Of a DNA stretch of 50,037 bases, positions 2,806 through 21,682 are shown piece by piece. The DNA lies in assembly GCA_026394215.1 (NCBI GenBank), contig JAPKYR010000198.1, positions 1 through 50,037 on the forward strand, given 5' to 3'. A model generated the notes under the pieces. The model was not told where the DNA came from. It made no database searches and worked only from the letters and a program-made list of their open reading frames with translations. Source of the stretch: a bacterium. Lineage in GTDB: Bacteria > JAJVIF01 > JAPKYR01. Numbering within the stretch: position 1 is the stretch's first letter; each line of letters begins with the position of its first letter. The position numbers were made by a program, and so were the translations under genes.

Positions 2806-3327
2806 ATGAAGTTTGAAGATTTAAATATTGAGCCTATCGTACTTCCCGAGAGGGAAAGCCAGACCGGATATACGCTTCTGGAGATCCTCGGCGTGACCGT
2901 GCTTGCGGTTATCGTTGTCATGATGGCGCAGGGGATGGTCTCGAGCTATAAGAAGTACTCGGTCGAGGAAATCGCGGTTCAAAGGCTGAAGGAACTTTCC
3001 AAATTCGAACACGAGTATCGATATCTTAACGACCCAACGGTGAATCCGACCAGGGTATACGGGACATTTTTCGATTTGCAGAATGCGGGAATGATATCCG
3101 ATGTATACTCGCAATCGGACGAGAGGCGGCATACTATCGATGCGTACGTCCCGAATTACCGCCTTGAGTTCATGAAGAGCGAGGAGGAATCGGACATTGA
3201 GCCGGACGCGTTTCAATACATGATCATGGCGATCCCGCTGTACAATTCGATGGGATTGAAAACGTTCTACGTACAGGAGGACGGCGAGGTTTATTTCCAG
3301 GATTTCATTTTTCTGCAGCCAAGATAG
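2806..3327 (+). CDS. Type IV pilin-like protein, paralog 1 of 12.
   Basis: I chose ATG 2806 inside ORF 2710..3327 because the upstream part overlaps the previous gene. Motif ...RESQTG|YTLLEILGVTVLAVIVVMMA, conserved helix RLKELSKFEHEY, tail MGLKTFYVQEDGEVY. Confidence 0.8.
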   Translation: MKFEDLNIEPIVLPERESQTGYTLLEILGVTVLAVIVVMMAQGMVSSYKKYSVEEIAVQRLKELSKFEHEYRYLNDPTVNPTRVYGTFFDLQNAGMISDVYSQSDERRHTIDAYVPNYRLEFMKSEEESDIEPDAFQYMIMAIPLYNSMGLKTFYVQEDGEVYFQDFIFLQPR

Positions 3328-3346
3328 GTCCGGAGGATAAATAACG

Positions 3347-3853
3347 TTGATGTTTGGATTAAGAATAAATACAAAACACAGCCAGGCAGGATACACGTTG
3401 ATGGAAGTCCTGATAGTCGCGACGATAATCGGGATCCTGCTGTCTGTCGGGACTGTACAATATCTTGAGGTCAAGCGCCGCGCGAAGGAAAAACTCGCGG
3501 TTTCGAGGCTTGCCCTGCTCGCGACATATGAGCGCATGTATCTAAGAACCTATGGGACCTATGGCGAATGGGACGATCTTCGCGAAGAGGGGTATATCGC
3601 GCAGGATTACAATTATCAGAACGATGATCTGACGCACTACGACCGTCCGGTTTATGTTCCGGAATACACGCTCGAATTTGCTCTCGATGATACCAACGGT
3701 GGATTCAGAATTACAGCGAAGCCGGTGCTTCAACAGGCGCATTTATGGTATCCAAGGTGGGTGATTCTGGGCGGAATTGATGATTTGAGAAGCGTTTATG
3801 TAGAAGAGGATGGAGTCGTGAGGTGGCTTGATTCGGATCGGGCGGTGTATTAG
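3347..3853 (+). CDS. Type IV pilin-like protein, paralog 2 of 12.
   Basis: ...KHSQAG|YTLMEVLIVATIIGILLSVG; tail LRSVYVEEDGVV. Confidence 0.8.
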   Translation: MMFGLRINTKHSQAGYTLMEVLIVATIIGILLSVGTVQYLEVKRRAKEKLAVSRLALLATYERMYLRTYGTYGEWDDLREEGYIAQDYNYQNDDLTHYDRPVYVPEYTLEFALDDTNGGFRITAKPVLQQAHLWYPRWVILGGIDDLRSVYVEEDGVVRWLDSDRAVY

Positions 3854-3869
3854 TTCAAGAGAAAAAGCG

Positions 3870-4388
3870 ATGCAAGAGACAGAGAAACAGAAGGGCTGGA
3901 CGTTAATCGAGATACTGTCAGTATGCTTTATGATCATGATCATTTTGTCATACGCGCTGCCGTCATATATGCAGGCGAGGAGAATTACATACGAGGACAA
4001 TGCAATCGGACGGCTCCAGAGGATTGCTTTCGCGGAGTCGAGATATTATAACGAGTATGGAAGATTTGGAAATTTTACGGAGCTGGTTGAAGCGTCGTAC
4101 ATTCCGAGAGGTTATTCGACCTACTTTGCATTCAGCAAAGACGCCATGTCGGAATCGAGTATTTTACCTTTCATCGACAGGTATTCGCTTTCATTCATGG
4201 TGCCGAATAACGTGAATTCGCTTTATTACAAGGTGGACGCGATACCGATCGGGTACAATAGAATGGGATTAAGGACATTTAACATAAATTTGTTTATCAC
4301 CGGATCGACCACCCCGGATAACATATTGCAGAATCCGCCCGTACGGGAGGGTCTGGAATCCAATGGAAAGATTGTAGTTGAATTTTAA
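3870..4388 (+). CDS. Type IV pilin-like protein, paralog 3 of 12.
   Basis: ATG 3870 inside ORF 3828..4388. MQETEKQKG|WTLIEILSVCFMIMIIL is the shortest leader of the set. Tail MGLRTFNINLF. Confidence 0.8.
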   Translation: MQETEKQKGWTLIEILSVCFMIMIILSYALPSYMQARRITYEDNAIGRLQRIAFAESRYYNEYGRFGNFTELVEASYIPRGYSTYFAFSKDAMSESSILPFIDRYSLSFMVPNNVNSLYYKVDAIPIGYNRMGLRTFNINLFITGSTTPDNILQNPPVREGLESNGKIVVEF

Positions 4389-4407
4389 GCTGTTTGAAGT
4401 GAAAAAA

Positions 4408-4926
4408 ATGGCAGAAGTACAGGATCACATTATGAATGAGTCGCCTGAAAACAGGAAGCCTGAGACGCCTGAAAAGCGTAAACGGGCCGGTTATACGATG
4501 GTCGAGATAATGCTCGCGGTTGGGATGATAGCGATTATTGCGACAATGGCGATTCCGAATCTTCAGCACGCGAGGCAGAACGGGCTTGAAACCGCCGCGA
4601 TACAGGGATTGAAAGAACTATCGGAAGCGGAAGAGATTTACTACGACACTTATGGATTTTACACGGACGGGCACGACCAGGTTCAGGATTTGAGAAGGGT
4701 CGATGCGATTGATTCCAAGGCCTATCATCGTTTGAGTCTCAGAAGGGGAGTATTTATAAAGGGATACTCTGTCCAGTTTTTGAACCTTGGGGAATTTCCC
4801 GAGAATTACTCGATTATCGCGTGGCCGCTCGAGCGCGGGATGGATCTCAAGACATTTATGGTCATCAGCGATGGCCTGGTAAGGGACTACGGGGAGGATC
4901 ATGAAGCTCCGGTAACAATTTATTGA
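4408..4926 (+). CDS. Type IV pilin-like protein, paralog 4 of 12.
   Basis: ATG 4408 (TTG 4378 is an alternative start). ...PEKRKRAG|YTMVEIMLAVGMIAIIATMAIPNL; tail MDLKTFMVISDGLV. Confidence 0.8.
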   Translation: MAEVQDHIMNESPENRKPETPEKRKRAGYTMVEIMLAVGMIAIIATMAIPNLQHARQNGLETAAIQGLKELSEAEEIYYDTYGFYTDGHDQVQDLRRVDAIDSKAYHRLSLRRGVFIKGYSVQFLNLGEFPENYSIIAWPLERGMDLKTFMVISDGLVRDYGEDHEAPVTIY

Positions 4927-4946
4927 AATCAGGCAATTGAAACAGG

Positions 4947-5489
4947 ATGAATGAAATGAGGATAAAAAAATACGGAAGCCAGAAAGGATTTACACTGCTC
5001 GAAGTTTTAGTGGTGGTCGGGATAATCGGGATTTTAACAGTCCTCGCGATTCCGGCCACGCGTAAGGTTGAGAAAGTGGTTATGGAAACCGGATGTATCA
5101 AAGGGCTTCACGTGATCCAGGAAGCGATGGAGATGTATTACCGCGAGACCGGATTCTACCCTGTCCATACTGAAGAGCCGTCGAGATTGTTCTTCCGCGA
5201 AATCGACAGGTATCTTCCGGAAACGTATTACATTCGCCACGCAGAGGATCAGTTTATTCGCGGCTACCGGCTTCTTGCCTACGGAATTCCACCGGAAGGC
5301 CATGGCGGGGAGACATCGACAGGCGGCGGCTTCGGAGGGTTTGGCGGGGGACCAAGCGTGGATCGATGGGGGAGCCATATGTACGTGCTGATGGCGATCC
5401 CGATTCAGAACCATCTGGGGCTGAGGACGTTTTACCTCGATCCAGGCGGAGTAGTAACGACGGACGAAGACAGACGGGAACCGTATTGA
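4947..5489 (+). CDS. Type IV pilin-like protein, paralog 5 of 12.
   Basis: ...YGSQKG|FTLLEVLVVVGIIGILTVLAIP; Gly-rich insert GGETSTGGGFGGFGGGP; tail LGLRTFYLDPGGVV. Confidence 0.85.
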   Translation: MNEMRIKKYGSQKGFTLLEVLVVVGIIGILTVLAIPATRKVEKVVMETGCIKGLHVIQEAMEMYYRETGFYPVHTEEPSRLFFREIDRYLPETYYIRHAEDQFIRGYRLLAYGIPPEGHGGETSTGGGFGGFGGGPSVDRWGSHMYVLMAIPIQNHLGLRTFYLDPGGVVTTDEDRREPY

Positions 5490-5524
5490 TAAATGTAAAT
5501 AAGTAATATTAGCGGAGAAACGCT

Positions 5525-6028
5525 ATGCAAGATGAAATGAAAGAAAAATACCTTGATGATGACACCGGAGAAAATGAAGAGAACTCCGAAGGCAGGGGGT
5601 TTACCCTGCTGGAAATTCTTCTCGTGGTTTCTATCATCACGGTAATAGTGGCGATGGCTCTTCCCCAGTTGAGCGGGGTTAAGAGGTCGGCTTACGAGCT
5701 TGGCGCGATGAAAGCATTAAACGCGCTCGGAACTGCGGAGCTGGCATACAGGAATGAATACAGGCATTTCACGTCGTTCGAAGGTCTCAGGATCAGGGGA
5801 TATGTAAATGAGAGGCTCAGGAAATTCGGGCCCACCGATCGTGAACGGATGGCGAAGCATTATTCTATTAATTACTACGTTATGGATACGTTCAAGAATT
5901 TCACGTACGGTTACCAGTTCATAGCGTTTCCCGATCGCGGTAATTCATATAACCTTCACACGTTCAGGATTTTGACCGACGGCACGGTCGAGCAGTCTAG
6001 CGACGGAGTTTACTGGGTGCCGCGCTGA
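5525..6028 (+). CDS. Type IV pilin-like protein, paralog 6 of 12.
   Basis: ...ENSEGRG|FTLLEILLVVSIITVIVAMALPQL; GGAG just upstream of the ATG; tail YNLHTFRILTDGTV. Confidence 0.85.
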   Translation: MQDEMKEKYLDDDTGENEENSEGRGFTLLEILLVVSIITVIVAMALPQLSGVKRSAYELGAMKALNALGTAELAYRNEYRHFTSFEGLRIRGYVNERLRKFGPTDRERMAKHYSINYYVMDTFKNFTYGYQFIAFPDRGNSYNLHTFRILTDGTVEQSSDGVYWVPR

Positions 6029-6081
6029 TCGTTGAAAGTTGAAGGCGGAACAGACAGGAAAAGTCGATTACAGGTGTAAAT

Positions 6082-6588
6082 ATGGATGAAGAAAAAAGAA
6101 ATCCGGAAGAACAAGAAAAGGAAAAGAAAAAAGACTCGGGCTTTACGCTGGTCGAGGTACTGACGGTTGCGCTGATAATCGCGATGATAGTAACGTTCGG
6201 ATTTGCGTCGTTCAGGAAATCCCGTCAGAGGGCGATTGAAACGCAGGGGATTCATGCGATGAAGGCGCTGGCGTCGGCGATGGAAGCGCATTTCAACGAT
6301 AATGGATTTTATCCTTTGACTTTCTCCGGGCTCCAGCCGACTTATGTAAATCCATACTATGTTTTGTCCGATTCGCCCACCAAGGAACGTTCGGTAGCCT
6401 TCGTCCAGGGATTCACCTGTTTCTGGTATGTTAATCCGCTTAATCCGCAGAGATATTCCATCAGGGCGAAGGGAATCTATCGGCATGACTGGACAATCAG
6501 CGACTGGCTCGAATTGAGAGTGACGGATCGCGGAGTGGTTGAGGGCAGACGATATTCCGCCGGGCGAAGCGAATTCCGTCCGTTGTAA
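6082..6588 (+). CDS. Type IV pilin-like protein, paralog 7 of 12.
   Basis: ...KEKKKDSG|FTLVEVLTVALIIAMIVTFGF; AGGTG upstream of the ATG; tail LELRVTDRGVV. Confidence 0.8.
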   Translation: MDEEKRNPEEQEKEKKKDSGFTLVEVLTVALIIAMIVTFGFASFRKSRQRAIETQGIHAMKALASAMEAHFNDNGFYPLTFSGLQPTYVNPYYVLSDSPTKERSVAFVQGFTCFWYVNPLNPQRYSIRAKGIYRHDWTISDWLELRVTDRGVVEGRRYSAGRSEFRPL

Positions 6589-6669
6589 GGCTGCAATATA
6601 AAAGAACGAAAGAGAATGTAATATAGAGATAGAAGAACAGATCCTGGCAGTACGGGTAGGTTAAAAAAA

Positions 6670-7167
6670 ATGAAATTGACCGAAATAAACACAGAACGCA
6701 GGAGAAAAACCGGAAGGGAAGCCGAAGCCGGTTTCACGCTGATAGAAATGGTCCTGGTGGCGACGCTGATCGCGATCCTGTCCACTATAGCGATAGCGAG
6801 CATGTCGCATGCCAGGTATAAGGCCATGGAATCCGGCGCGGCGCAGGCATTGAAGGCGATAGCCCAGGCTGAAGAGATGTACCTGATGGATAATGGAAAG
6901 TACACGTTCCATTTTTCATCGCTTGTGAACGTCTATCTTCCGCGGGCATACTCGGTGGGCGATCAATATAATGTTTTCGCCAAGAATTATTCGCTCTACT
7001 GGCTGTATTTCGGTCACGGGGGACCAAGACCGCCGATCGCGAATTATTCGGTGCTTGGATACACGGTATTCGCGATGCCTAACGACAGGAATCTGAAAAC
7101 ATTTGTAATCACGGATGACGGCGCAGTACAGGTAGCACATACATTGACAAACTGGTCGCCATATTGA
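6670..7167 (+). CDS. Type IV pilin-like protein, paralog 8 of 12.
   Basis: ...GREAEAG|FTLIEMVLVATLIAILSTIAIAS; tail RNLKTFVITDDGAV. Confidence 0.85.
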   Translation: MKLTEINTERRRKTGREAEAGFTLIEMVLVATLIAILSTIAIASMSHARYKAMESGAAQALKAIAQAEEMYLMDNGKYTFHFSSLVNVYLPRAYSVGDQYNVFAKNYSLYWLYFGHGGPRPPIANYSVLGYTVFAMPNDRNLKTFVITDDGAVQVAHTLTNWSPY

Positions 7168-7192
7168 TGCCGGAAGCCAGGGTGCTGAAACG

Positions 7193-7744
7193 ATGCTGAG
7201 ATTATTCATAAATAAACGGAAAAAACCAAGGGATTGGCGGCCCCGACGAGACCGCGAGTCCGGTTTCACTTTGGTCGAGGTGTTGACGGTCGCGTTTATC
7301 ATCGGGATACTTGCGACGATGGCGGTCGTCAGCATGAGGGGTGGCAAACGCGTGGCGTTCGAGACCAGGGCGATTGCCGCGGTGAAAAATATCGCCGAGA
7401 ACGAGACCATGTTCTATCAGAGGCATTACGGGTTCGGGACATGGAACGAGATGGAATACGAGGGCGACCTGATCGATCCGGGATATGCAAAAGTCGATGA
7501 TATGAATACGCCATACGATACGCCCATAGCAAATTTGTATTCGTGCGTGGTTATCGTGGTGAAACAAAGGCAGACATTCACCGCGGTTGCATATCCAAGG
7601 GCTAACTCGTTGTGGCACATGAGGACGTTTGCGGTTACAAGCGACGGGAGCATAATGAATTCGCAGGATCATGGATGGTTTTTCTCGCTTTTGTCGACAG
7701 TGCATCCGCTGCTCGATTCGGAGCTTGACCCGTTGCCTCATTAA
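7193..7744 (+). CDS. Type IV pilin-like protein, paralog 9 of 12.
   Basis: ...RRDRESG|FTLVEVLTVAFIIGILATMAVVS; tail WHMRTFAVTSDGSI. The equally long antisense ORF 7202..7741 has no such motif. Confidence 0.8.
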   Translation: MLRLFINKRKKPRDWRPRRDRESGFTLVEVLTVAFIIGILATMAVVSMRGGKRVAFETRAIAAVKNIAENETMFYQRHYGFGTWNEMEYEGDLIDPGYAKVDDMNTPYDTPIANLYSCVVIVVKQRQTFTAVAYPRANSLWHMRTFAVTSDGSIMNSQDHGWFFSLLSTVHPLLDSELDPLPH

Positions 7745-7876
7745 TGAAATATTGATTTGATAAAAAATGGACCGGAAGTAAAAATCGGTTCGTAAATATT
7801 TAAAGAAAATAAAAGCTGAAAAAGAGAAAAAGACCGGATACCCGGCGTGAAAACCGGGGTACGGAGGCTAATAAAG

Positions 7877-8314
7877 ATGATGAAACTCTTGAAATCAAGG
7901 GATAACGATACCCGGGGATTTACCCTGATCGAGGTACTGGTGGTGGCGAGCATTATCGGCATACTGGCCGCCATAGCGATTCCGTCCCTGGCGGGGTCCA
8001 AGAAAAGCGCGTATGAGGCGGCATGCCTTAAAGCGCTCAGGAGTATCACGGACGCCGAGGAGATGTTCTACCGTGATAATTACCAGTACACGTCGGACTG
8101 GGGGTCCCTGGATGATTACCTGCCATCGGCATATTCGGGCTGGGAGTACAAAGCGTATTTCATCCAGGGATACTCGATAGCGATGGTGACGTCGCAATCG
8201 TCCCAGAGGTATACATGCTGGGCGATACCGCAGGACGCGGGACGTTTGAGGCTTAATACGTTCGCGATTATGGACGACGCGATACCGCTGAACGCGGACT
8301 TTACGCCGAAATAA
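7877..8314 (+). CDS. Type IV pilin-like protein, paralog 10 of 12.
   Basis: ATG 7877 is preceded by GGAGG at 7863-7867 (GTG 7847 is an alternative start). ...RDNDTRG|FTLIEVLVVASIIGILAAIAIPSL; tail LRLNTFAIMDD. Confidence 0.85.
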   Translation: MMKLLKSRDNDTRGFTLIEVLVVASIIGILAAIAIPSLAGSKKSAYEAACLKALRSITDAEEMFYRDNYQYTSDWGSLDDYLPSAYSGWEYKAYFIQGYSIAMVTSQSSQRYTCWAIPQDAGRLRLNTFAIMDDAIPLNADFTPK

Positions 8315-8336
8315 ACGGGAAGTACGTAAAATTCGT

Positions 8337-8933
8337 ATGACTGACAGGTTAAGAAAACTGGAAAAAGCGCAGAAGGGATACTCCCTTATCGAGATGCTGA
8401 TAGTCACCGCGATGATTGTGATCATGGCTACAATTCCGGTTGCGCTTCTGAGGAAAAGCCGCGAGAAGGTGTTTGAGCTGGACGCGCTAAGGGCGTTGCG
8501 CACGGTGGCGGTTGCATACGAAAATTATTATTCAACACACGATTTTCAATATCCGAACTATCAATCCAGCGGGGCGGTTACGGAAAACAACCAGTTCCAT
8601 AATCCGGAAGCGATCTGGGCCATGCTTAACAGGGAAAATTTGCTCCCTGGAATGTACTCGGGTTTTTACTATGACCGGAAAGACCTGATGGCGCGAGGGT
8701 ATCGATTTTCGATTTTCCCGTCGGATTTCGGGGACAATGTGGAAGCCGGCGCGAAGAATTCGTATGCGTTCGCGATGATCGCGTACGATGGGGGCGTGGG
8801 TCAACGGGACCTTGTAATGGTTCACGGGATGAGGTCTTTCACTACATACCCGACGGCGATTCCGAGGGCAATGGGCGGGATGAACTTAATCAGTACGACA
8901 ATTTTTGCTATGCCGAATCAGTCGGACAGGTAA
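8337..8933 (+). CDS. Type IV pilin-like protein, paralog 11 of 12.
   Basis: ...LEKAQKG|YSLIEMLIVTAMIVIMATIPV; tail HGMRSFTTYP. Confidence 0.8.
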   Translation: MTDRLRKLEKAQKGYSLIEMLIVTAMIVIMATIPVALLRKSREKVFELDALRALRTVAVAYENYYSTHDFQYPNYQSSGAVTENNQFHNPEAIWAMLNRENLLPGMYSGFYYDRKDLMARGYRFSIFPSDFGDNVEAGAKNSYAFAMIAYDGGVGQRDLVMVHGMRSFTTYPTAIPRAMGGMNLISTTIFAMPNQSDR

Positions 8934-8962
8934 AAATTATATATGAATAGAGGATATTAAGT

Positions 8963-9541
8963 TTGATAAAGAAAAAAGGGAACAGCCTATGGTGGCGACG
9001 GGTAGCCGGGTACACAATGGTCGAACTTATGACCGTGTCCGCGATAATTTCTATCCTGGCCGCTATTTCGTTCGCGCTGATATCCCGCATGAGGAGCCAG
9101 GCGATCGAGAGCAAGGCGGTCGCGACTCTGAATGTTGTAGCGACCGGATACGAGATGTACTTCAATCGTTTCAGGGAGTACCCGCAATGGGGGCCGGAGA
9201 GCAGATTCGAAACGCCCCGCGCCTTGTGGAATTTTCTTGCAGAGCAGGAATACATACCGAGGTCATACGTGAATACCCAGTATGACAGCGGGTCGGGATA
9301 TATATTTGGTGTAGCTGAAGATTACGCGATGGAGATACCGATGTACGATTCAACGGATAATACGACGGATCAGAAGTATTCATATTTTGTAGTATTTCAT
9401 CCGTTTAATCTTCAAAGGGATTCGCTCGCAGTAGGGATAAATCCGCCGACAGGGTGGGTGGCGGCGCGTCCGAGAAAGGGGAGCACGAACGGGAATTACA
9501 GATTTTTCAGACTTTACATACCACACCGCGGCGGGGCATGA
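8963..9541 (+). CDS. Type IV pilin-like protein, paralog 12 of 12 (most divergent C-terminus).
   Basis: TTG start. ...WWRRVAG|YTMVELMTVSAIISILAAISFALI; conserved helix ATLNVVATGYEMYFN. Confidence 0.75.
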   Translation: MIKKKGNSLWWRRVAGYTMVELMTVSAIISILAAISFALISRMRSQAIESKAVATLNVVATGYEMYFNRFREYPQWGPESRFETPRALWNFLAEQEYIPRSYVNTQYDSGSGYIFGVAEDYAMEIPMYDSTDNTTDQKYSYFVVFHPFNLQRDSLAVGINPPTGWVAARPRKGSTNGNYRFFRLYIPHRGGA

Positions 9542-9684: not shown

Positions 9685-9713
9685 TTGACTTGTATTTATT
9701 ATTATAGTATTGT
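9685..9713 (+). promoter_or_regulatory. Candidate sigma70-type promoter upstream of pilM.
   Basis: TTGACT (9685-9690), a 17-nt A/T-rich spacer, then TATTGT (9708-9713). It lies inside the 303-nt non-coding gap between the last pilin and pilM. Confidence 0.3.
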
Positions 9714-9844
9714 GCCGTCGAGTGGAGCGGGGCATTGTTGGTCGGTGTGCCGTTTTACATGAAACAGGGTTGAATGTTTTTTATTTTTTGCTGACGAAAG
9801 CCTTGGTCCGATGGACCTGTAAGCTGCGAAAACGAGGATAACTG

Positions 9845-11071
9845 TTGTCACCGTTACCATTATTCAACATTGCGCCGAAGCGTGCCCTTGGGGTTCATGT
9901 CGGTCCTGCGCAGGTGAAGCTGGTCGAGATTGAGAGGGGCAAGCGACCGGCTATCATCAACCTGCTCTGGGAGGAGACTCCACCCGAAGCTTATGTCGGC
10001 AACCGTCTTGAGAACCCGTCGGCATTGGCCTCCACAATCGTGCGGATGCTTCAAAGCCGCAAGATCAAGACAAGGCACATGTTGTCGGCAGTCGATGGGA
10101 GCGAAGTAATCGCCCGCACTATTACTTTGCCGAACATGCCCATCCGCGAGCTTCGGAAAGCGATCCTGTTCGAGACCGAAGCTTCGCTTCCAGCAGGTGC
10201 TGGAGATACGGTGCTTGATTATTCCATTCTGAGAACATTTACTAGTGAAGAAGATAAGTCCGAGAAGGTGGAAGTATTAATCTTATCGGCTCAGAAACAC
10301 CCGCTTGGCCTTATGGTCGAAGCATTTCTCGAAGCCGGGTTGCGTCCCGCCGCACTCGACCTGACCCCGGTCGCTGCTCACAGGGCGGAGAAACGGTCGA
10401 AGGCCATTACGGATCGCGGGAACGAATACATACTTATTACTGTAAACGACAAATGCACCGACCTGTCGATTATTTTCCAGGGTGAGGTCCGGCTTGTTCG
10501 ATCGATCCCGATTGGCAGTGTCGGATTTGTGGATGCGCTCGGCGAGAAACATCTGTTCGATGCCGGGCTGGGTACCAGGCAGAAGGCTCAAACAGAATCA
10601 TTTGGAGACGATACGGATAGCGGTCCGAACGAGGACCTTGGTATAGTCCGTGCCGACGAAGGGGATCTTGAATTCGGGTCGTTCGGCGAGGACCCATTCT
10701 CCGCCGAGCTTTCGGCCCGTGATGAAAAGTTATCCAGAGAATCCGGGTCGGATATCGACGAGCTTGCTAAATTAAATCCGCTGATCACCGAACTTGTCGA
10801 TGAGACCCTGAACACGATCAGGTATGGGCAGTCGTTCGGGACGGAGCGATCTGAGATCGGATTCGGGGTTATTGACGGTTATTATCCGTACGGAGAGCAT
10901 TTCGTAAAGTCCATGTCGGACAAGCTGGGAATACCGGTTGTGCAGGGCGACCCGTTTGCGTCGGTTGATTTGCCGAATGGCGGGTACAGGGAAGAGCTGG
11001 TAAAATATTTCGCCCCGGATTTCAGTGTCGCTGTGGGCCTCGCGCTAAGGGGGATACATCAGTTTGGATAA
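9845..11071 (+). CDS. pilM: Type IV pilus assembly protein PilM (actin-like ATPase fold) with an acidic low-complexity insertion.
   Basis: 408 aa with a TTG start. The N-terminus LGVHVGPAQVKLVEIE... fits the PilM/FtsA-like pattern. Its end overlaps the pilN start by 8 nt, and the gene order is pilM-N-O-(P)-Q. Confidence 0.75.
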   Translation: MSPLPLFNIAPKRALGVHVGPAQVKLVEIERGKRPAIINLLWEETPPEAYVGNRLENPSALASTIVRMLQSRKIKTRHMLSAVDGSEVIARTITLPNMPIRELRKAILFETEASLPAGAGDTVLDYSILRTFTSEEDKSEKVEVLILSAQKHPLGLMVEAFLEAGLRPAALDLTPVAAHRAEKRSKAITDRGNEYILITVNDKCTDLSIIFQGEVRLVRSIPIGSVGFVDALGEKHLFDAGLGTRQKAQTESFGDDTDSGPNEDLGIVRADEGDLEFGSFGEDPFSAELSARDEKLSRESGSDIDELAKLNPLITELVDETLNTIRYGQSFGTERSEIGFGVIDGYYPYGEHFVKSMSDKLGIPVVQGDPFASVDLPNGGYREELVKYFAPDFSVAVGLALRGIHQFG

Positions 11072-11762
11072 AGATAAACTGATCAACCTGCTTCCCGAAG
11101 AGTATCTGCCCGAGCCGGAATTTAAAATATTCCCGATATTTGCCGCGGTGCTTATTATTCTAACGATCCTGTTTGTCTACATGAGCTATCAGAGAGACCA
11201 GAGAATGGTAACCAAGGCGGAAAGAGACTACAAAGAGATCGAAGCAAGAGTGGGCCAGAAACTTACGGATGCAATGCCTTTTCTGGAAATACAGAGAAAC
11301 GCGAGATTTATCAGCAGTTATTTCGGAGTCATCCCGAACATGGTACTCCAGGCTCCCGATTACTGGGAAATATACAATGAGCTTGAAAGGCTTCTGCCGG
11401 AGAGAACATGGATAGCGAACATGGCCTTCAGGGCCGGGGCAATAACCTGGCCGAATCTAACCATTAATTTCCTGTCAAAGGGTTACTCATTTGAAGGGCC
11501 ATTAACGACATACGATAATTTCCTTGGAAAACCGGATGTGCCGACAAGGTTCCGCGGCCTTCAGATGGATGGATACCAGCGTGTCAATGTGGGCCCGGAT
11601 CCCGGCTCAAGTTTCACTTTATTAATGAGAGTTGCTTTTCCGACATCCATGCGGATCGAGGATAAGGGCAAACAGGAAGAAGGGACGGAAACCCAGGGGC
11701 AGGAAAACCAGGATAATCCGGTTAACCCGGAAGGAACGAGCCATGGAGGTGAAACTCCCTAG
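11064..11762 (+). CDS. pilN: Type IV pilus assembly protein PilN.
   Basis: N-terminal INLLPEEY motif (the PilM-binding INLLP signature), then a TM helix FPIFAAVLIILTILFVYM and a coiled-coil-like stretch. Confidence 0.75.
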   Translation: MDKDKLINLLPEEYLPEPEFKIFPIFAAVLIILTILFVYMSYQRDQRMVTKAERDYKEIEARVGQKLTDAMPFLEIQRNARFISSYFGVIPNMVLQAPDYWEIYNELERLLPERTWIANMAFRAGAITWPNLTINFLSKGYSFEGPLTTYDNFLGKPDVPTRFRGLQMDGYQRVNVGPDPGSSFTLLMRVAFPTSMRIEDKGKQEEGTETQGQENQDNPVNPEGTSHGGETP

Positions 11763-12638
11763 GTGAATCCATACGCAAAAATAGCAATCAAGATTGGAAT
11801 AGTGATTGTAATATGCCTGGTTATCATGACCGGTTACCGGGCAATCTGGCATAAGAGTTTTACCGCCAAGCTTGTAAAAGCCAATAAAGATATCGCTGCA
11901 GGCAGGGTAATTGAGGAATCGGTTGATTCGTTGCTGGCATACAACCATCTCCTTCCGCAGATCAGGCAGGTGCAGCTCCAGGATATGCAGACAATTCGAA
12001 ACCTGATCCCGGATGCCGGCGATTTCGTGCTGACCAGTTACCTGAGAAGGATTCATACCCTTATTTCGGATAACCATCTGGAAACCAATGGGATCACGAT
12101 ACGGTCTTCCGCGGCTCTTGGCGGGACAACTTTCGATGAGGCGTTCGCGCAGGATCCAACCAGGCTGATTTCCGACCTGGCGTCATTTACAGGCGCTCTC
12201 GATAATTTTGAGCAGCGGGAAAGCGAGATGAATAATCTGCTGGTCAGTTTCCAGTTCTATAATGCTATTTCGTCAGGATCTGAGAATTTTGCCGCGATCG
12301 CAGGCGGTATCGAAACGCATACATTCAACCTTTCGGTGCGCGGTCCTTATAAAGATATAAAGAAATTTACGTTTGAAGTATTCAATATGAGGCCATTGAC
12401 GGCGCTCACGAATTTCCAGATGTCTCCCCAGGGAGTAGGAATCGGCCCAACGCGCCAGTATGTCGCAAGCTTCAAGCTGGTAACCTATGGCGACGCTAAT
12501 GGCCAGCCTCCGCTTTGGGATGCTTACAGACATGGGCTTATCGGTGGAGCGGATATTACTCTCGCGTCGGATGCAGGCGTTACAGATGAAAGTACCGCAA
12601 GTGAAAGCGGCACGGATGAAAGTGGGAGTGATGGCTGA
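11763..12638 (+). CDS. pilO: PilO-like bitopic inner-membrane pilus alignment protein.
   Basis: The GTG start abuts the pilN stop. It has one TM helix (IAIKIGIVIVICLVIMTGY) followed by a periplasmic domain. The call rests on position and topology, not on a recognised motif. Confidence 0.5.
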   Translation: MNPYAKIAIKIGIVIVICLVIMTGYRAIWHKSFTAKLVKANKDIAAGRVIEESVDSLLAYNHLLPQIRQVQLQDMQTIRNLIPDAGDFVLTSYLRRIHTLISDNHLETNGITIRSSAALGGTTFDEAFAQDPTRLISDLASFTGALDNFEQRESEMNNLLVSFQFYNAISSGSENFAAIAGGIETHTFNLSVRGPYKDIKKFTFEVFNMRPLTALTNFQMSPQGVGIGPTRQYVASFKLVTYGDANGQPPLWDAYRHGLIGGADITLASDAGVTDESTASESGTDESGSDG

Positions 12639-12690: not shown

Positions 12691-13206
12691 GTGAGAAAGA
12701 TGATGAAGCACAATGACAGAAAACCGGATTATGGAGAAAGGGCGAAAAAGCTCGCGCCATATGCCGTGATTATTCTGGTATTGACGGTGGGAGTTATTCT
12801 TGTTATCCCTCAGTTTGGCGCAGTCAGACCGGTTCAGGCACAGGTGAATCTGGGACAGGTCGGAAACGTGGTAACCGAAACAGTCGGCGAAGCCGCGTCC
12901 GAGACAGCCGGAGAATATGCCCAGACGCAAAATGAAATTGAAAACCCGACACCGCAGCCTGCCGAGAATCAGGAAGAAACAGCACCGTCAGAAATCCCTG
13001 CGACTGAGCCTGTCGCGGTAAATGCTGAAGAAGTAGAACTTAGCGAAGAAGAAGCCCAGGCGATGAGGGAGCAGTTTTATACGTCGTCCGAAGGAATAAG
13101 CGGAAAGCACTTCACGGAACTAAGCGATCCTGAAATCCGCCAGAGCCTGGATGAGGCCTCCATTTCCAAACACAGAAGTATACGGGGTGCCGTCTGGAGA
13201 GAATAA
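12691..13206 (+). CDS. PilP-like protein, N-terminal part (membrane anchor plus Glu/Pro-rich linker). Probably one gene with 13151..13483.
   Basis: TM helix LAPYAVIILVLTVGVILVIPQF followed by an acidic linker. The frame ends inside a 56-nt overlap with the next ORF. Confidence 0.45.
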   Translation: MRKMMKHNDRKPDYGERAKKLAPYAVIILVLTVGVILVIPQFGAVRPVQAQVNLGQVGNVVTETVGEAASETAGEYAQTQNEIENPTPQPAENQEETAPSEIPATEPVAVNAEEVELSEEEAQAMREQFYTSSEGISGKHFTELSDPEIRQSLDEASISKHRSIRGAVWRE

Positions 13207-13483
13207 GGGACCCGATATTACAGCGGAGATGGTCGCGCAGGTGCTCAGGTTGAAAGGTGTACTGGCAGATGGCAACGATTATATCGCGATTATCCTTATT
13301 TTAAACCAGGAAAAAAGATTGAGGGTTGGGGATGAAGTATTTAACAGCGGCCAGCGAAGTTATATTATAACAGAAATTGATATGAGTTCAGTAAAAATAC
13401 AGGCGGCGGACAACAGTGCGGATGTTGGTGTCATACATTTCGGAGCCCGCGCGCAGATCCAGAATTTTTCGATTTCGTATTGA
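13151..13483 (+). CDS. PilP-like protein, C-terminal beta-domain part.
   Basis: RPPFPN... then LKGVLADGNDYIAIILILNQEKRLRVGDEVFNSGQRSYIITEIDMSSVKIQ, which fits the small PilP/GspC-HR beta-domain pattern. There is no signal or anchor of its own and no obvious Shine-Dalgarno before ATG 13151. Confidence 0.45.
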   Translation: MRPPFPNTEVYGVPSGENKGPDITAEMVAQVLRLKGVLADGNDYIAIILILNQEKRLRVGDEVFNSGQRSYIITEIDMSSVKIQAADNSADVGVIHFGARAQIQNFSISY

Positions 13484-13608: not shown

Positions 13609-16600
13609 ATGAGAATCGCGCAACAACCTGGAAGCAATAAGAAAGAAATGAGAAGAGGCTTTGCCTTCCTTCTCGTCCTGCTGTTAATTATTCCCCTGAC
13701 AGTGCTCAGGGCGGAAGAGCCCGCAGGACCTGCCGATGTAAGCACGGCAGATATTGAGGTGACTGCACAAGCTGTGGTAGTCAACCTTGCGGTTTCAAAC
13801 CTTGCAAGCGTGCGGTCATTCAACCTCACATCACCCTCGAGGGTTGTTTTCGATATAGAGGGTGCTGTGCTTACGCTGGCCGATACGGCCACGACATCCT
13901 GGGAGAATCCCATAGATGGAATTGTCAATCTCACGATTACACAATTCTCTATGGAACCTCCGGTAGTCAGGGTGGTCGCCGAAGTATCAAATCCCGCGCT
14001 CCAATCGGATCGATTGACAAGTCCGGATACTGTCAAGCTGGCGATCTTTACCGGCGACAGTCCGCTTGTCGAGTCAGCCGGACCCGGAGCGCCGCCGTCA
14101 AGCCTGATTCCGATAATCGAGAAATTCTGGCATGAGGCGACCGAGACCGGCGAGGATCGGTTTGTGATCGAATTCTCCTTCGGTGTCGTGCTTCCGCAAG
14201 TTAGAATAGAAAGCCCGACAGTGCTTCTTCTCAGGTTCCCGGGGACGGATGTGCTTCTACCGCCCACAACTCCCGATAATTTCGTTACATCTGTCGGTGG
14301 AATTTTAGTTGAACGGATGAGGGCCGAGCGTCTGATGGAATCCGGTCAAAACGTTACGGAAATCCGTCTGACTGTTCCCAATACCAGCGCGATAAGTTAC
14401 ACGCTTGGAACATATGCTGAAGATTCTCTGGAAATGATTATCTCCGGAGAAGCTGTTCCTGAACCGCCGGTAGTAGCCCCAATTGAACCGCCTGTGATAG
14501 AGCCTGTCCAACCCACACGGATCGAGGGTGGCGAGATTATGGTGCTCGCTTCGAGCGAGAATGTTCCGGTTATGCCGGATACGCCAATTCATATCACACG
14601 CGTTCAATTCCAGTCTATAGATTCTGAAACCGATAGGTATTTTATTTATTACGAAGGTGGGGAGCTTGATCCCCATGTACAGAGATTCAATTACCCGACA
14701 AGGGTAGCGGTATATTTCCCGGATGCTGCAGTTGTGCTTCCTGAATCTGCCGAGGGACGTTTCCAGGCCGTGGTTCACGGGGCTGTAACCGATGAGCTTA
14801 AAGTATTCAACCGCGTCATCGAAGACGTCGGGCCTGAAAGCCAGTTTATATTCTACTTCCCGGGCTATGAGCAGGAAAACGTCGGATTTTCGGTCGATTA
14901 TGTCGATCCCGGTCTGATGCACATCGATTTCTACCGCACGTCCGTGCCGATAGATATCGAGTCACCGGTCGAGGTAAATACGAGTATCGATGCCCCGGAA
15001 GCTGTACCTGAAGAGACATTAGCTCCACCGGCTGAGATCGAAGCACCGGCAATCGTTGAAGAACCGGTGATTATTGAGGAGCCTGTAGTTAATGAGACTT
15101 CTGAAACCACTGAAATCGTGAATCCGGTTGTCGAGGATACAACGCCTCCAGAAATAGCGGGAGCGGAACTGCCTTTAATTACTGTCACGCTTGGTGAAGT
15201 CAGCAGCGATACAATTAATTTCCGAATCGAGACAAGCGAGCAGATGCCGACGCCGGAATGGATCGAGTATCATTATCCGGAAAGGCTCGGACTCAGGTTC
15301 CCATACGCTAATATCCATCTCCTTGAAGCCGCTGTGGGAGTCGGATCGTCATACACTCATGTACAGGCAATTCCGCTTGTCCGGGCAATTATGAAAGACC
15401 GCGACAACGAACAGTACACTACGATTATATTTACTCTTGAGGGAGAAATAGAGGAATACACAGGGGACATCAGCCAGGAAGGGAACGCGTATCTGGTTAC
15501 GTTCCATTACAATCCGCTTTCTGAGCAACCGGTGGTAGCGCCAATCGAAGAAGAGATAACTGCACCGGTTGATGAGACAGTACCGGCACCGGTCGAAGAA
15601 GTTCAACCAGAACCGGTCGAAGAAGTCAGTGCTGAGCCTGTCGAGGCGCCATTAGTTATTGGAGAGCCGGAGCCAGTCGAAGCAACATCAATTATATATG
15701 TAACAGCCGGGGATGTAGTTACCGATAACACTGTCACATTCCGGATAGCATCGACAGAATCGCTTCCGATGCCCGAATGGGTTGAGTATCGCTATCCTGA
15801 GAGGCTTGGTTTGAAGTTCCCATATGCTGACGTTCAGTTAATGGACGCCGCGGCGGGAATTATCTCGGCTTATACACATATGCAGGCAGTTCCGCTTGTC
15901 CGCGCGATTCAGAATGATCGTGACGGTGAGCAGAGCACGACCATTGCATGGACCCTTGCGGGTAATATTGAAGAATATGCCCGTGATATCAGTCAGGATG
16001 GGTCGGGCTATCTCGTTACATTTACCTATACTCCTGCACCTGTAGTACCAGAGCCTGTAGAAGCACCGCAACTTGTTCAGTCGGAACCAACATCTGCTGT
16101 AGTTGAGCAGCCGGTAGTAGAAGAAGAGCCTGAAGTTGAAGTACCGGGAGTCCCGGCTGAGCTTGAAATCCCGGCGTTGGAAACTCCCCTGGCGCTTCCG
16201 TTTATCGAAGTCAGCAGCGGCGAGATTGTCGGGGACAAGATAATGTTCCATATCACCACTTCGGAGCTATTTCCTGTGCCGGAGTGGATAGAATATCGGT
16301 ACCCGGATCGTCTTGGCCTCCGGTTCCCGTTATCGGATGTTAAGTTGCTGGGAGAAGAAGACGCATTAACGGTAAATACCGGGTTGGATCTGATTCCGAC
16401 AGTTCGGGCGATCGTGAAAGACCGTACAGATGAGCAGTACACGATAATTACATTCACGCTGGCCGGCTCGCTTGAAGAGTTCAAAGGCGAGACCAACTGG
16501 AATGGCCGCGATATCGATGTAATATTTACTTACAGTCCGGCAATGTCCGAGCCCGAGGCTACGGTCCAGCCGGAAGCTGTAGAAGAGATAGAAGTACATG

Positions 16601-20710: not shown

Positions 20711-21682
20711 ATGCCATCACAGGAACAGGAACAAACAGCTGTCGAGCTCTTAAAGAATCTTATAGGGCGGATGCTTGAAACCGGTGCGAGCGACCTTCAC
20801 TTGCAGGAGGGAGAGCGTCCATTTCTAAGGCTGGTCGCCGGGCTTATCCCGCAATCCGATCTTGAGCCGGTCAGCCGTGAGATGCTCGATGGGGGCCTCG
20901 CGCTTAGTTTCAGGGCGATCCCTGCTAATCCGCCGAGTTTTCATGAGCTCGCCCTGCCTTCCGCGGTGCGTCGATTCGCGAATCTGAAAAGAGGGCTGGT
21001 AATTATCTGCGGACCGACGGGATGCGGGAAGTCCACAACCGCAGCGGCGATCATACATCAGATAAATTCATCGCGCCGGGCGCATATTATCACTATCGAG
21101 GATCCAGTAGAATTCGTCCATAAATCTAAGACAAGTCTTGTGGCACAGAGGGAAGTGGGTCAGCACACCATATCCTTCGCGGACGCGCTTAGAGAAGGCC
21201 TTAGAGAAGACCCAGACGTCCTTCTGGTGGGCGAGATGCGCGATATGGAGACAATCGAGCTTGCGCTTCGCGCAGCCGAGACGGGACACCTTGTTTTTTC
21301 GACCTTGCACACATCGGGCGCAACGGGAAGTATATCGCGAATTATCGACGCGTTTGAGACGGGGGCGAGATCGGTAATCCGTATGCAGTTATCGCTTGTC
21401 CTGATGGGGGTCGTGAGTCAGATTCTTGTCCCGACCAGGGACGGGAAACGTCGTGTGCCGATTTGCGAAATAATGATCCCCAACGATGCCGTCAGGCATC
21501 TTATCAGGGAAAACAAGCTGGAACAGGTATCGAACGTTATTCAATCAGGAACTGAGGAAGGCATGCTGAGTTTCGCGGCTCATATCGCAGAACTTACAAA
21601 AGCGGGCGTGATCGATGCCGCCGGCGGGCTTGAGGCGGTCGGCGAGGGCTGGCGTATCGCGGAGATTTTATTCGGGAGCTGA
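20711..21682 (+). CDS. pilT: PilT-like type IV pilus retraction ATPase (323 aa) with a shortened N-terminal domain.
   Basis: GASDLHL, Walker A GPTGCGKST, ITIEDPVEF, Walker B DVLLVGEMRD, GHLVFSTLHT, and C-terminal AVRHLIRENK (PilT AIRNLIRE-type signature). Confidence 0.85.
   Translation: MPSQEQEQTAVELLKNLIGRMLETGASDLHLQEGERPFLRLVAGLIPQSDLEPVSREMLDGGLALSFRAIPANPPSFHELALPSAVRRFANLKRGLVIICGPTGCGKSTTAAAIIHQINSSRRAHIITIEDPVEFVHKSKTSLVAQREVGQHTISFADALREGLREDPDVLLVGEMRDMETIELALRAAETGHLVFSTLHTSGATGSISRIIDAFETGARSVIRMQLSLVLMGVVSQILVPTRDGKRRVPICEIMIPNDAVRHLIRENKLEQVSNVIQSGTEEGMLSFAAHIAELTKAGVIDAAGGLEAVGEGWRIAEILFGS

Follow-up and report, generated by a model that had tools for sequence, protein, structure and literature searches.

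A stretch of 50,037 nucleotides from an uncultured sediment bacterium of the Planctomycetota (the whole of contig JAPKYR010000198.1 of assembly GCA_026394215.1, positions 1 to 50,037 of the forward strand; hereafter the window) carries, on its plus strand between positions 2806 and 9541, twelve consecutive intact open reading frames (ORFs) for prepilins of 145–198 amino acids, which we call p01 to p12. Type IV filaments are described as being built from one major pilin, rarely two, plus a few minor pilins. The novelty of this locus lies in twelve paralogs of one lineage-specific family that stand in a single tandem array and whose number and order have remained unchanged across a deep clade. 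The array is larger than the pilus subunit sets that we found described as a single fixed tandem set, although machines with ~15 pilins are already known (Kil), and a literature search, limited in reach, returned no description of this twelve-gene array. The fixed set belongs to a machine that resembles those of type IVa pili (T4aP), and in the likeliest explanation, the region is an operon for the subunits of a divergent pilus machine of type IVa-like character, carried by a deep, uncultured lineage of Planctomycetota.

Start codons were refined by comparing the leader peptides across orthologs, and the ORFs obtained in this way confirm the run of twelve same-strand pilin genes proposed in an earlier reading of the window from its letters (the sequence-only reading). 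As that reading had it, every copy carries a prepilin motif that leads into a hydrophobic α1 helix. The motif takes the form G↓(F/Y/W)(T/S)(L/M)(I/L/V/M)E, with Gly(-1), F/Y/W at +1, T/S at +2 and Glu5 present in 12 of 12 copies, and each of them shows the full set of N-terminal features that define a type IV pilin (leader, Gly(-1), +1 residue, Glu5 and hydrophobic α1N). Judging from these residues, none of the twelve lacks a determinant required for a prepilin peptidase to process it or for its insertion into a type IV filament. The peptides and DNA strings quoted in the earlier reading were located as well, the former in p08 (ALKAIAQAEEMY), p04 (GLKELSEAEEIY) and p10 (ALRSITDAEEMF) and the latter at positions 5597, 4986 and 6730. 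In a scan for the motif, 14 prepilin ORFs follow one another without a break at this locus, versus runs of 0–5 in 23 unrelated pilin-containing loci (each at least 9 kb long and retrieved with a generic GFTLLEILL N-terminal pattern); the full prepilin set consists of 12 + 2 genes, plus the 3' end of a gene for a protein of ~870 residues.

Family models recognize the N-termini of these proteins. The Pfam N_methyl model scores above its gathering cut-off in nine of the twelve pilins and below it in p01 and p06, p03 has no Pfam match, and Pfam found nothing beyond the N_methyl motif in any of the twelve. The NCBIfam pilin and pseudopilin models, which also match the N-terminus of p03, cover only the first 30–70 residues and stay far below their cut-offs. 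The mature proteins, and with them their head domains, range from 131 to 184 residues, and key α1 residues differ between copies: Pro22 is found in p03, p04, p05, p06 and p10, and the combination of Gly14 and Pro22 in p05 and p10. There is no conserved cysteine pair (0–2 Cys per copy) and hence no D-region disulfide. Type IVa pilins have a short leader of fewer than ~10 residues, canonically ~6–7, a trait that the array pilins do not share; their leaders are conserved, highly charged and 9–22 residues long (9 in p03 and 14 in p10), with a length typical of each ortholog group.

Structure prediction is consistent with the same assignment. The AlphaFold 2 model of p10, run on the family alignment, has a predicted local distance difference test score (pLDDT) of 86 and a pilin fold in which a 52-residue α1 (H17-68) is followed by three strands, while that of p11 reaches a moderate pLDDT of 72 and contains α1 plus a β-sheet. 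The top Foldseek neighbours in the PDB are type IV pilins, all of them weak (E 0.09 or worse; 4d40, 6t8s, 4bhr, 3sok, 2ope and 1oqw), among which are Shewanella 4d40, Clostridioides difficile PilA1, Thermus TTHA1221, FimA, PilX and PAK pilin; the last three are the top matches of p11, again weak. The models thus predict the lollipop fold of type IV pilins, a long α1 set on an antiparallel β-sheet head. When a sequence profile was compared with solved structures, only α1 matched (Geobacter PilA-N, Myxococcus PilA, Thermus PilA4 and GspG).

The array is conserved as a unit. An exact-sequence look-up of p08 gave no match. A profile of the twelve paralogs matched only 131 proteins among 5.8 billion clusters, and an ortholog of p01 is present in eight species-level GTDB genomes; the relatives are uncultured Planctomycetota metagenome-assembled genomes (as labelled by NCBI) and unbinned metagenome contigs. 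The survey of array size advocated in the sequence-only reading gave twelve genes in 8 of 8 complete relatives, with one-to-one orthologs in the same order in all seven for which DNA was available, and in BLAST comparisons each relative's gene best matches the window paralog at the same position. Every locus that spans the whole array (L003, L005, L008, L009, L010, L077 and a JGI contig) shares a common layout, namely UbiA, a 490-residue gene, genes for ~870-, ~550- and ~220-residue proteins, the twelve small pilins and PilM. PilM homologs at 44–54% identity led to a sister lineage (L079 and L080, whose PilM is 47–49% identical to that of the window clade) in which the architecture is retained and the twelve positional orthologs recur, each of them separated from its next-best paralog by a clear margin. 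The sole change of array content in any relative is a 197-residue ORF inserted between p06 and p07 in this sister lineage (L080:5803-6396), which has neither a pilin motif nor similarity to the array. All twelve ortholog groups are monophyletic in a neighbour-joining tree of 72 sequences from six genomes. Three distant representatives (P0135, P0141 and P0125) lie on contigs shorter than 1.2 kb, with no usable gene context. Outside the clade, identity falls steeply, to at most 32% for PilM and, for the window's chorismate synthase against many phyla, to at most 50%, indicating that the lineage is deep and has no characterized relative.

The paralogs themselves are only 18–31% identical to p01, and at most ~38% identical between any two groups. 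Synonymous divergence in the conserved N-terminal stretch, pointed out in the sequence-only reading, is evident: within the first 29 codons, only ~40% of identical residues use the same codon among paralogs, which argues against recent duplication or gene conversion. The ratio of nonsynonymous to synonymous substitution (dN/dS) lies between 0.02 and 0.14 for p01–p09 against the closest relative, L001, the only comparison for which we quote it (dS is ~1–2.7 and near saturation there, and saturated or nearly so against the others). Against more distant relatives, the pilins have dN values (0.07–0.44) similar to those of PilM/N/O (0.16–0.44) or below them, and p01 and the chorismate synthase from the same contigs have diverged to a similar extent. 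In most ortholog groups, the mature length is invariant or varies within ~3 residues in the clade (142 residues in 7 of 7 genomes for p06, 148 residues in the 6 of 6 scored for p07). Such low dN/dS values and near-constant lengths indicate that the twelve pilins are functional and individually constrained. The all-against-all comparison, tree and dN/dS analysis proposed at the outset thereby uphold the view that the copies are old and maintained and not recent duplicates, as the ortholog groups are monophyletic, order and number are fixed and selection is purifying; the full-length one-to-one orthologs give no sign of decay, and the comparative data exclude decay, recent duplication and cassette-type variation.

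Within the set, p10 (7877-8314, +; 14-residue leader, 131-residue mature protein, G14 + P22) is the best candidate for the bulk, shaft-forming subunit. Its N_methyl score of 35.8 bits is the best of the twelve, it is the shortest mature protein and has both Gly14 and Pro22, the gap that precedes it is the array's largest (88–132 nt across genomes), and its Shine-Dalgarno sequence, GCGGAGG, is the strongest and most uniform (mean of -9.6 kcal/mol in 9 genomes, versus -3 to -8 for the others). Its α1N is the most conserved of the array (94% identity within the clade and 82% between clades) and variation is greater in its head, as is usual for a shaft subunit. Lastly, p10 is the nearest paralog of six of the eleven other copies and the hub of the similarity matrix, as would be expected if the others derive from it.

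These comparisons suggest an arrangement to which we give about even chances, in which p10 builds the shaft, the other eleven copies act as low-abundance specialized pilins and three large proteins encoded upstream serve as a cap or priming complex. The twelve pilins would be a fixed, non-redundant set descended from one ancestral pilin. While p10 would provide the abundant shaft subunit, the other eleven would be co-assembled at low abundance by the same machine, either at a priming or tip complex or along the shaft, with each of them supplying a distinct head domain and being individually indispensable; the cap or priming complex would consist of the ~870-residue protein (Glu5-less in L003) and the 561- and 218-residue proteins. 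Transcription would probably begin at a σ54 promoter before the 870-residue gene, and pilMNO-Q would be read from their own σ70-type promoter. A single shaft pilin accompanied by many specialized minor pilins has precedents (PMC12075869, bioRxiv 10.64898/2026.02.12.705559, PMC10191384).

Several observations weigh against this arrangement. The case for p10 is assembled from sequence proxies, and p10 comes 13th in the presumed operon of 15 genes, with no recognizable promoter of its own. All twelve pilins and the upstream genes fall below the cut-off of every model for GspH/I/J/K or for a named minor pilin. Minor pilins that are specific to one system can usually be dispensed with, and gain and loss would be expected; the absence of any loss here is easier to square with an obligate assembly of set stoichiometry than with a collection of optional accessories. 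In addition, PilB, PilC and PilD were not identified among the scanned ORFs of the window (some ORFs beyond ~41.4 kb fell outside the scan), and the true major pilin could be encoded elsewhere in the genome.

The three upstream proteins begin, at the edge of the contig, with the 3' end of the ~870-residue gene (7-402, +; last 131 codons), which is cut by the contig end and encodes a candidate tip or cap subunit. This fragment is 43–85% identical to the C-terminus of ORFs of 866–906 residues in the relatives, and the gene has no Pfam family match. The N-terminus of the L003 ortholog, RGGVLVAVLIIATVFAILAYV, is a pilin-like hydrophobic helix without Glu5, and the absence of Glu5 characterizes the subunit that caps tip complexes of minor pilins (PMC10191384). 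Next comes a 561-residue prepilin-like protein (420-2105, +; G↓LSLLE), a large minor-pilin-like subunit whose N_methyl score of 20.3 bits is just below the cut-off and whose orthologs occupy the same position in all relatives. The third is a 218-residue, minor-pilin-like prepilin (2118-2774, +; G↓FTLIE; N_methyl 24.4 bits), with a 15-residue leader that is conserved in 8 of the 10 orthologs shown and weak GspJ/HpsC-type NCBIfam matches that are limited to the N-terminus. No family was recognized in the three proteins beyond the N-terminal pilin motif, and a PDB sequence search with the 561- and 218-residue proteins gave nothing useful. The C-termini of the ~870-residue (7-402) and 561-residue (1800-2105) proteins share a domain that ends in GY(K/R)GF(E/S)(I/L)D(H/R)V and has no Pfam match.

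Transcription signals were found at both ends of the presumed operon. In seven relatives, an invariant σ54-type promoter, TGGCAT-N5-TTGCA (TGATGGCAT-N5-TTGCA), is located ~90–110 nt upstream of the 870-residue gene (L001:4522-5010, L003:4499-4996 and five others), a place that lies to the left of window position 1. Farther upstream, the sequence TGGATTTTTTTG is invariant, and an inverted repeat, TGT(A/T)GCA-N3-4-TGCAACA, might serve as a site for an enhancer-binding protein. At the other end, a predicted σ70-type promoter (TTGACT-17-TATAGT, 9685-9713, +) precedes pilM in the same place in 8 genomes; this predicted element serves pilM and the downstream genes and sets the 3' limit of the pilin transcription unit. 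The pilM leader (~9748-9790) contains a hairpin followed by a T-run, reminiscent of an attenuator or terminator, with weak covariation (3 of 9 pairs), and Rfam gave no match in the window. Inside the array, searches with σ54, σ70 and terminator consensus sequences remained at background level. Intergenic gaps are mostly 12–53 nt, with 81 nt before p08 and the longest before p10. A GC-rich stem-loop, CCCGG...CCGGG, is placed directly 5' of the p10 Shine-Dalgarno sequence (7845-7870) in most of the genomes compared (the window and 8 relatives); it was seen by eye, is unsupported by RNAalifold and might act as a processing or stabilizing element.

The retention of every copy could also be understood if several or all of the twelve pilins, together with the three upstream proteins, occupied defined, non-interchangeable positions in one filament or short rod, giving an obligate heteropolymer or axially differentiated fibre akin to the flagellar axial series or to an enlarged HIJK-type complex. 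The sequence-only reading had also inferred, as an alternative, an unusually complex heteropolymeric fibre; such a fibre may exist, but sequence proxies favour a single likely bulk subunit, p10. The strict preservation of copy number and gene order across a very deep divergence speaks for such an assembly, as do purifying selection on all copies as strong as that on the machinery, mature lengths that are invariant or nearly so in most ortholog groups, and the Glu5 and residue 1 that make every copy assembly-competent; mixed shafts, moreover, exist in Streptococcus sanguinis (PMC10628169, PMC6497953). We nonetheless hold it to be unlikely, as heads of 131–184 residues and paralog identities of 18–38% are difficult to accommodate in a mixed shaft with regular helical order, the genes vary markedly in Shine-Dalgarno strength and one stands out from the rest, and our limited literature search gave no ordered pilin series beyond the 4–5 subunit tip complex. 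A more elaborate version, which we rate lower again, would have the fifteen genes encode a filament or rod of defined length, with many subunits in fixed stoichiometry or order, as a pilus counterpart of the flagellar rod-hook-filament. With a similarly low probability, the frozen gene order of such a rod would mirror its order of assembly and the long multi-AMIN secretin would be matched to it, spanning the planctomycete envelope.

Equally possible as the heteropolymer, and also unlikely, is a machine that builds two or more distinct fibres according to condition (e.g., for motility, adhesion or DNA uptake) from alternative shaft pilins. Five copies have Pro22, of which p05 and p10 add Gly14, and p02, p07, p08 and p09 also have fairly strong Shine-Dalgarno sequences. 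Precedents are provided by the solved Thermus PilA4 and PilA5 filaments (wide and narrow pili) and by two specialized cyanobacterial filaments (bioRxiv 10.64898/2026.02.12.705559). On the other hand, the short gaps, which apart from the longer one before p10 lack a recognizable internal promoter or terminator, leave little room for independent regulation, and the retention of all twelve copies everywhere would be left unexplained. The sequence-only reading had proposed a repertoire of alternative major subunits. Taken as interchangeable or variable copies, this is not supported: we saw neither gain, loss or shuffling of genes nor truncated cassettes or conversion tracts, and head size (131–184 mature residues) and key α1 residues vary from copy to copy. 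Condition-specific use of some copies is possible.

The genes downstream of the array point to the type of machine. PilM (9845-11071, +) matches Pfam PilM_2 with an E of 1e-19 and scores 129.6 bits with TIGR01175, whose cut-off is 133. The PilN and PilO genes (11064-11762 and 11763-12638, +) are assigned by position and by their conservation in the relatives, since no family model matches the genes at the PilN, PilO or PilP position. The PilP-position gene (12691-13483) occurs as two ORFs, 12691-13206 and 13151-13483, that overlap in different frames; its ortholog in L005 is in one frame, and the split in the window is a frameshift or an assembly error. A PilQ-type secretin of 1677 residues (13609-18642, +; ~1550 residues in the sister lineage) has Pfam Secretin and AMIN domains, and its best NCBIfam match, below the cut-off, is TIGR02515 PilQ. 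Besides the one AMIN domain matched by Pfam, it contains at least four more AMIN-like repeats of ~140 residues with PEW(I/V)EYRYPERLGL(R/K)FPYA motifs; its gene shows no tandem repeat at the DNA level. A retraction-type type IVa pilus ATPase of the PilT/PilU family (20711-21682, +) scores 347.6 bits with TIGR01420, versus a cut-off of 319.1. With PilM, an AMIN-bearing secretin and a PilT-family ATPase adjoining the array, the machinery is T4aP-like. The other genes of the window are those of an ordinary chromosome and include aroE- and aroC-like genes, def, cdaA and one for a histidine kinase.

These neighbours bear on whether the pilins might make up an endopilus of the type II secretion kind and not a surface pilus; a short pseudopilus within the periplasm would then drive substrates through the giant secretin. 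The weak N-terminal matches do include GspG and GspH models, a disulfide-bonded D-region is absent from every copy and JGI labels some orthologs 'pseudopilin PulG'. However, the NCBIfam Gsp matches are confined to the N-terminus (the best, GspG, gives 37 bits against a cut-off of 88.85), and the neighbours are of the T4aP type: PilM, an AMIN secretin that best matches PilQ and an ATPase above the PilT/PilU cut-off, which points to retraction. Type II secretion systems are recognized by a GspG-K set encoded with GspC/D/E/F/L/M; the locus does not show this combination, the window has no GspC/L/M or GspE/F, and we view the endopilus as improbable. Finally, a repertoire for antigenic or phase variation, or a collection of decaying redundant duplicates, shares with the locus the merely superficial likeness of many pilin copies in one place and is refuted by the comparative data, as all copies are full-length with their own start, leader and stop, no truncated cassettes or conversion signature in the conserved N-terminal codons are seen, and orthology is one-to-one without turnover, with dN/dS well below 1.

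The remaining copies, all on the plus strand, have the following individual features. Pilin p01 (2806-3327) has a leader of ~21 residues and a mature protein of 152 residues with Y1 and E5 and no P22; its orthologs are 57–86% identical and its dN/dS is 0.05. A 14-residue leader starts from the ATG at 3350 in p02 (3350-3853; 12 residues in most orthologs), which has G14, a conserved GGAGG Shine-Dalgarno sequence and a dN/dS of 0.04. Pilin p03 (3870-4388; dN/dS 0.06) combines its 9-residue leader with W1 and P22, and p04 (4432-4926; dN/dS 0.06) a charged leader of ~20 residues with P22. The head of p05 (4947-5489; G14 + P22) has a Gly-rich insert, and its dN/dS, at 0.02, is the lowest quoted. 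The leader is acidic and ~21 residues long in p06 (5537-6028; P22, dN/dS 0.045), K/E-rich and 20 residues long in p07 (6082-6588; dN/dS 0.03) and 21 residues long in p08 (6670-7167; mature length 144 residues, dN/dS 0.07). Pilin p09 (7193-7744) has G14 and no P22, and a dN/dS of 0.14. The motif of p11 (8337-8933), one of the two fastest-evolving copies, reads Y-S-L-I-E and is followed by the rest of a 184-residue mature protein. The last gene, p12 (8963-9541; 176-residue mature protein, N_methyl 26.1 bits), starts with TTG in 9 of 9 genomes, preceded by (A/G)GGATATTAA in six of these.

A profile built from the head domain only retrieved 196 representatives among 1.84 billion. Among the 150 listed, ~40 are pilins with a prepilin motif, mostly orthologs of individual array members, ~70–80 are non-pilin proteins with 2–5 tandem copies of the domain, and the remaining single-copy matches are partial or unassigned sequences. 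The tandem-head proteins (P0123, P0124, P0131, P0134 and P0142) have 260–865 residues, no prepilin N-terminus and a faint similarity to DUF2950/ComP_DUS, and their domain composition suggests that they form a soluble repeat family that arose from a pilin head or gave rise to it.

How a machine chooses and orders different pilins is an open question, for which this lineage offers a natural experiment in pilin specialization, as the twelve pilins have been kept in order since before the deepest sampled split (PilM 47–49% identical). Should the copies be co-assembled, the locus would reveal the extent to which the subunits of one type IV filament can differ; should they be specialized minor pilins, they would provide eleven orthologous series in which to map the determinants of position and abundance. 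In either case, the locus adds a very divergent T4aP-type machine from a lineage that branches deeply and has yet to be cultured; its PilM shares at most 32% identity with any homolog outside the clade, and its secretin has 1550–1677 residues.

Comparison with known systems places the array among, and apart from, several multi-pilin arrangements. The Neisseria pilE/pilS system likewise has multiple pilin-related sequences in one genome. Its pilS copies, however, are promoterless, 5'-truncated donors for gene conversion, and antigenic variation of this kind relies on silent truncated cassettes that share DNA blocks with the expression locus; the array shows no such cassettes, and all of its copies are complete, ancient and without sign of conversion. 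PilE1 and PilE2 of S. sanguinis are two recent, similar-sized paralogs. Encoded by adjacent genes, they give a shaft with more than one major pilin (PMC10628169, PMC6497953), and in this they resemble a possible use of the array, which differs by its twelve paralogs with 18–38% identity and heads of 131–184 residues, and by its diderm host with a secretin.

The closest parallel in machinery is the canonical T4aP of Pseudomonas, Neisseria and Myxococcus, which comprises five pilins (a single major pilin with four core minor ones) plus PilY1 (PMC10191384), in agreement with the baseline of one major and 4–5 minor pilins assumed in the sequence-only reading. The locus shares with it the class III signal peptide, F/Y1, Glu5 and the α1 plus β-sheet fold, the adjacent PilM, genes at the PilN and PilO positions, AMIN-bearing secretin and PilT-family ATPase, the σ54-type promoter that heads the subunit operon in the relatives, and a ~870-residue protein whose L003 ortholog has no Glu5, as in the cap subunit of the canonical system (PMC10191384). 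In contrast, it encodes 14 Glu5-bearing prepilins instead of ~5, twelve of which belong to a single lineage-specific head-domain family, with leaders of 9–22 residues, no D-region disulfide and a secretin of 1550–1677 residues. The canonical set of one major pilin, H/I/J/K core minor pilins and PilY1/PilC was not found at the locus: no gene reaches the cut-off of the GspH/I/J/K, FimU/PilV/W/X-type or PilA models, for which only N-terminal matches were obtained. PilM is at most 32% identical outside the clade.

Larger pilin sets on one T4aP machinery are found in Synechocystis PCC 6803, which has PilA1 and ~10 minor pilins, with a pilA9-pilA11 operon, and in Thermus thermophilus with PilA4 and PilA5, where, as may be the case here, many pilins are served by one machine and distinct sets prime or form distinct filaments. 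Those pilins, however, fall into six structural families encoded at several loci (bioRxiv 10.64898/2026.02.12.705559) and not in a tandem array of frozen order. In number, the locus comes nearest to the Kil (Tad/T4c) pilus of Myxococcus xanthus, with its major pilin KilP and 14 minor pilins that form four interchangeable tips: both have ~15 pilins per machine, and the expansion of minor-pilin paralogs is thought to functionalize a common shaft (PMC12075869). The Kil pilins, however, belong to three families (TadE/F/G-like) with four copies each, lie in four clusters and are partly redundant. The array paralogs show no excess of identity at gene distances of 3, 4 or 6, so the array is not a repeated module like the four Kil tips, and a Kil-like structure of four tips by three families is ruled out by this lack of periodicity, by the single family and by the hub position of p10. 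With twelve single-family paralogs in one colinear array, no periodicity and no copy lost in any relative, the comparison argues against redundancy and sets the planctomycete locus apart as a fixed series of individually maintained pilins.

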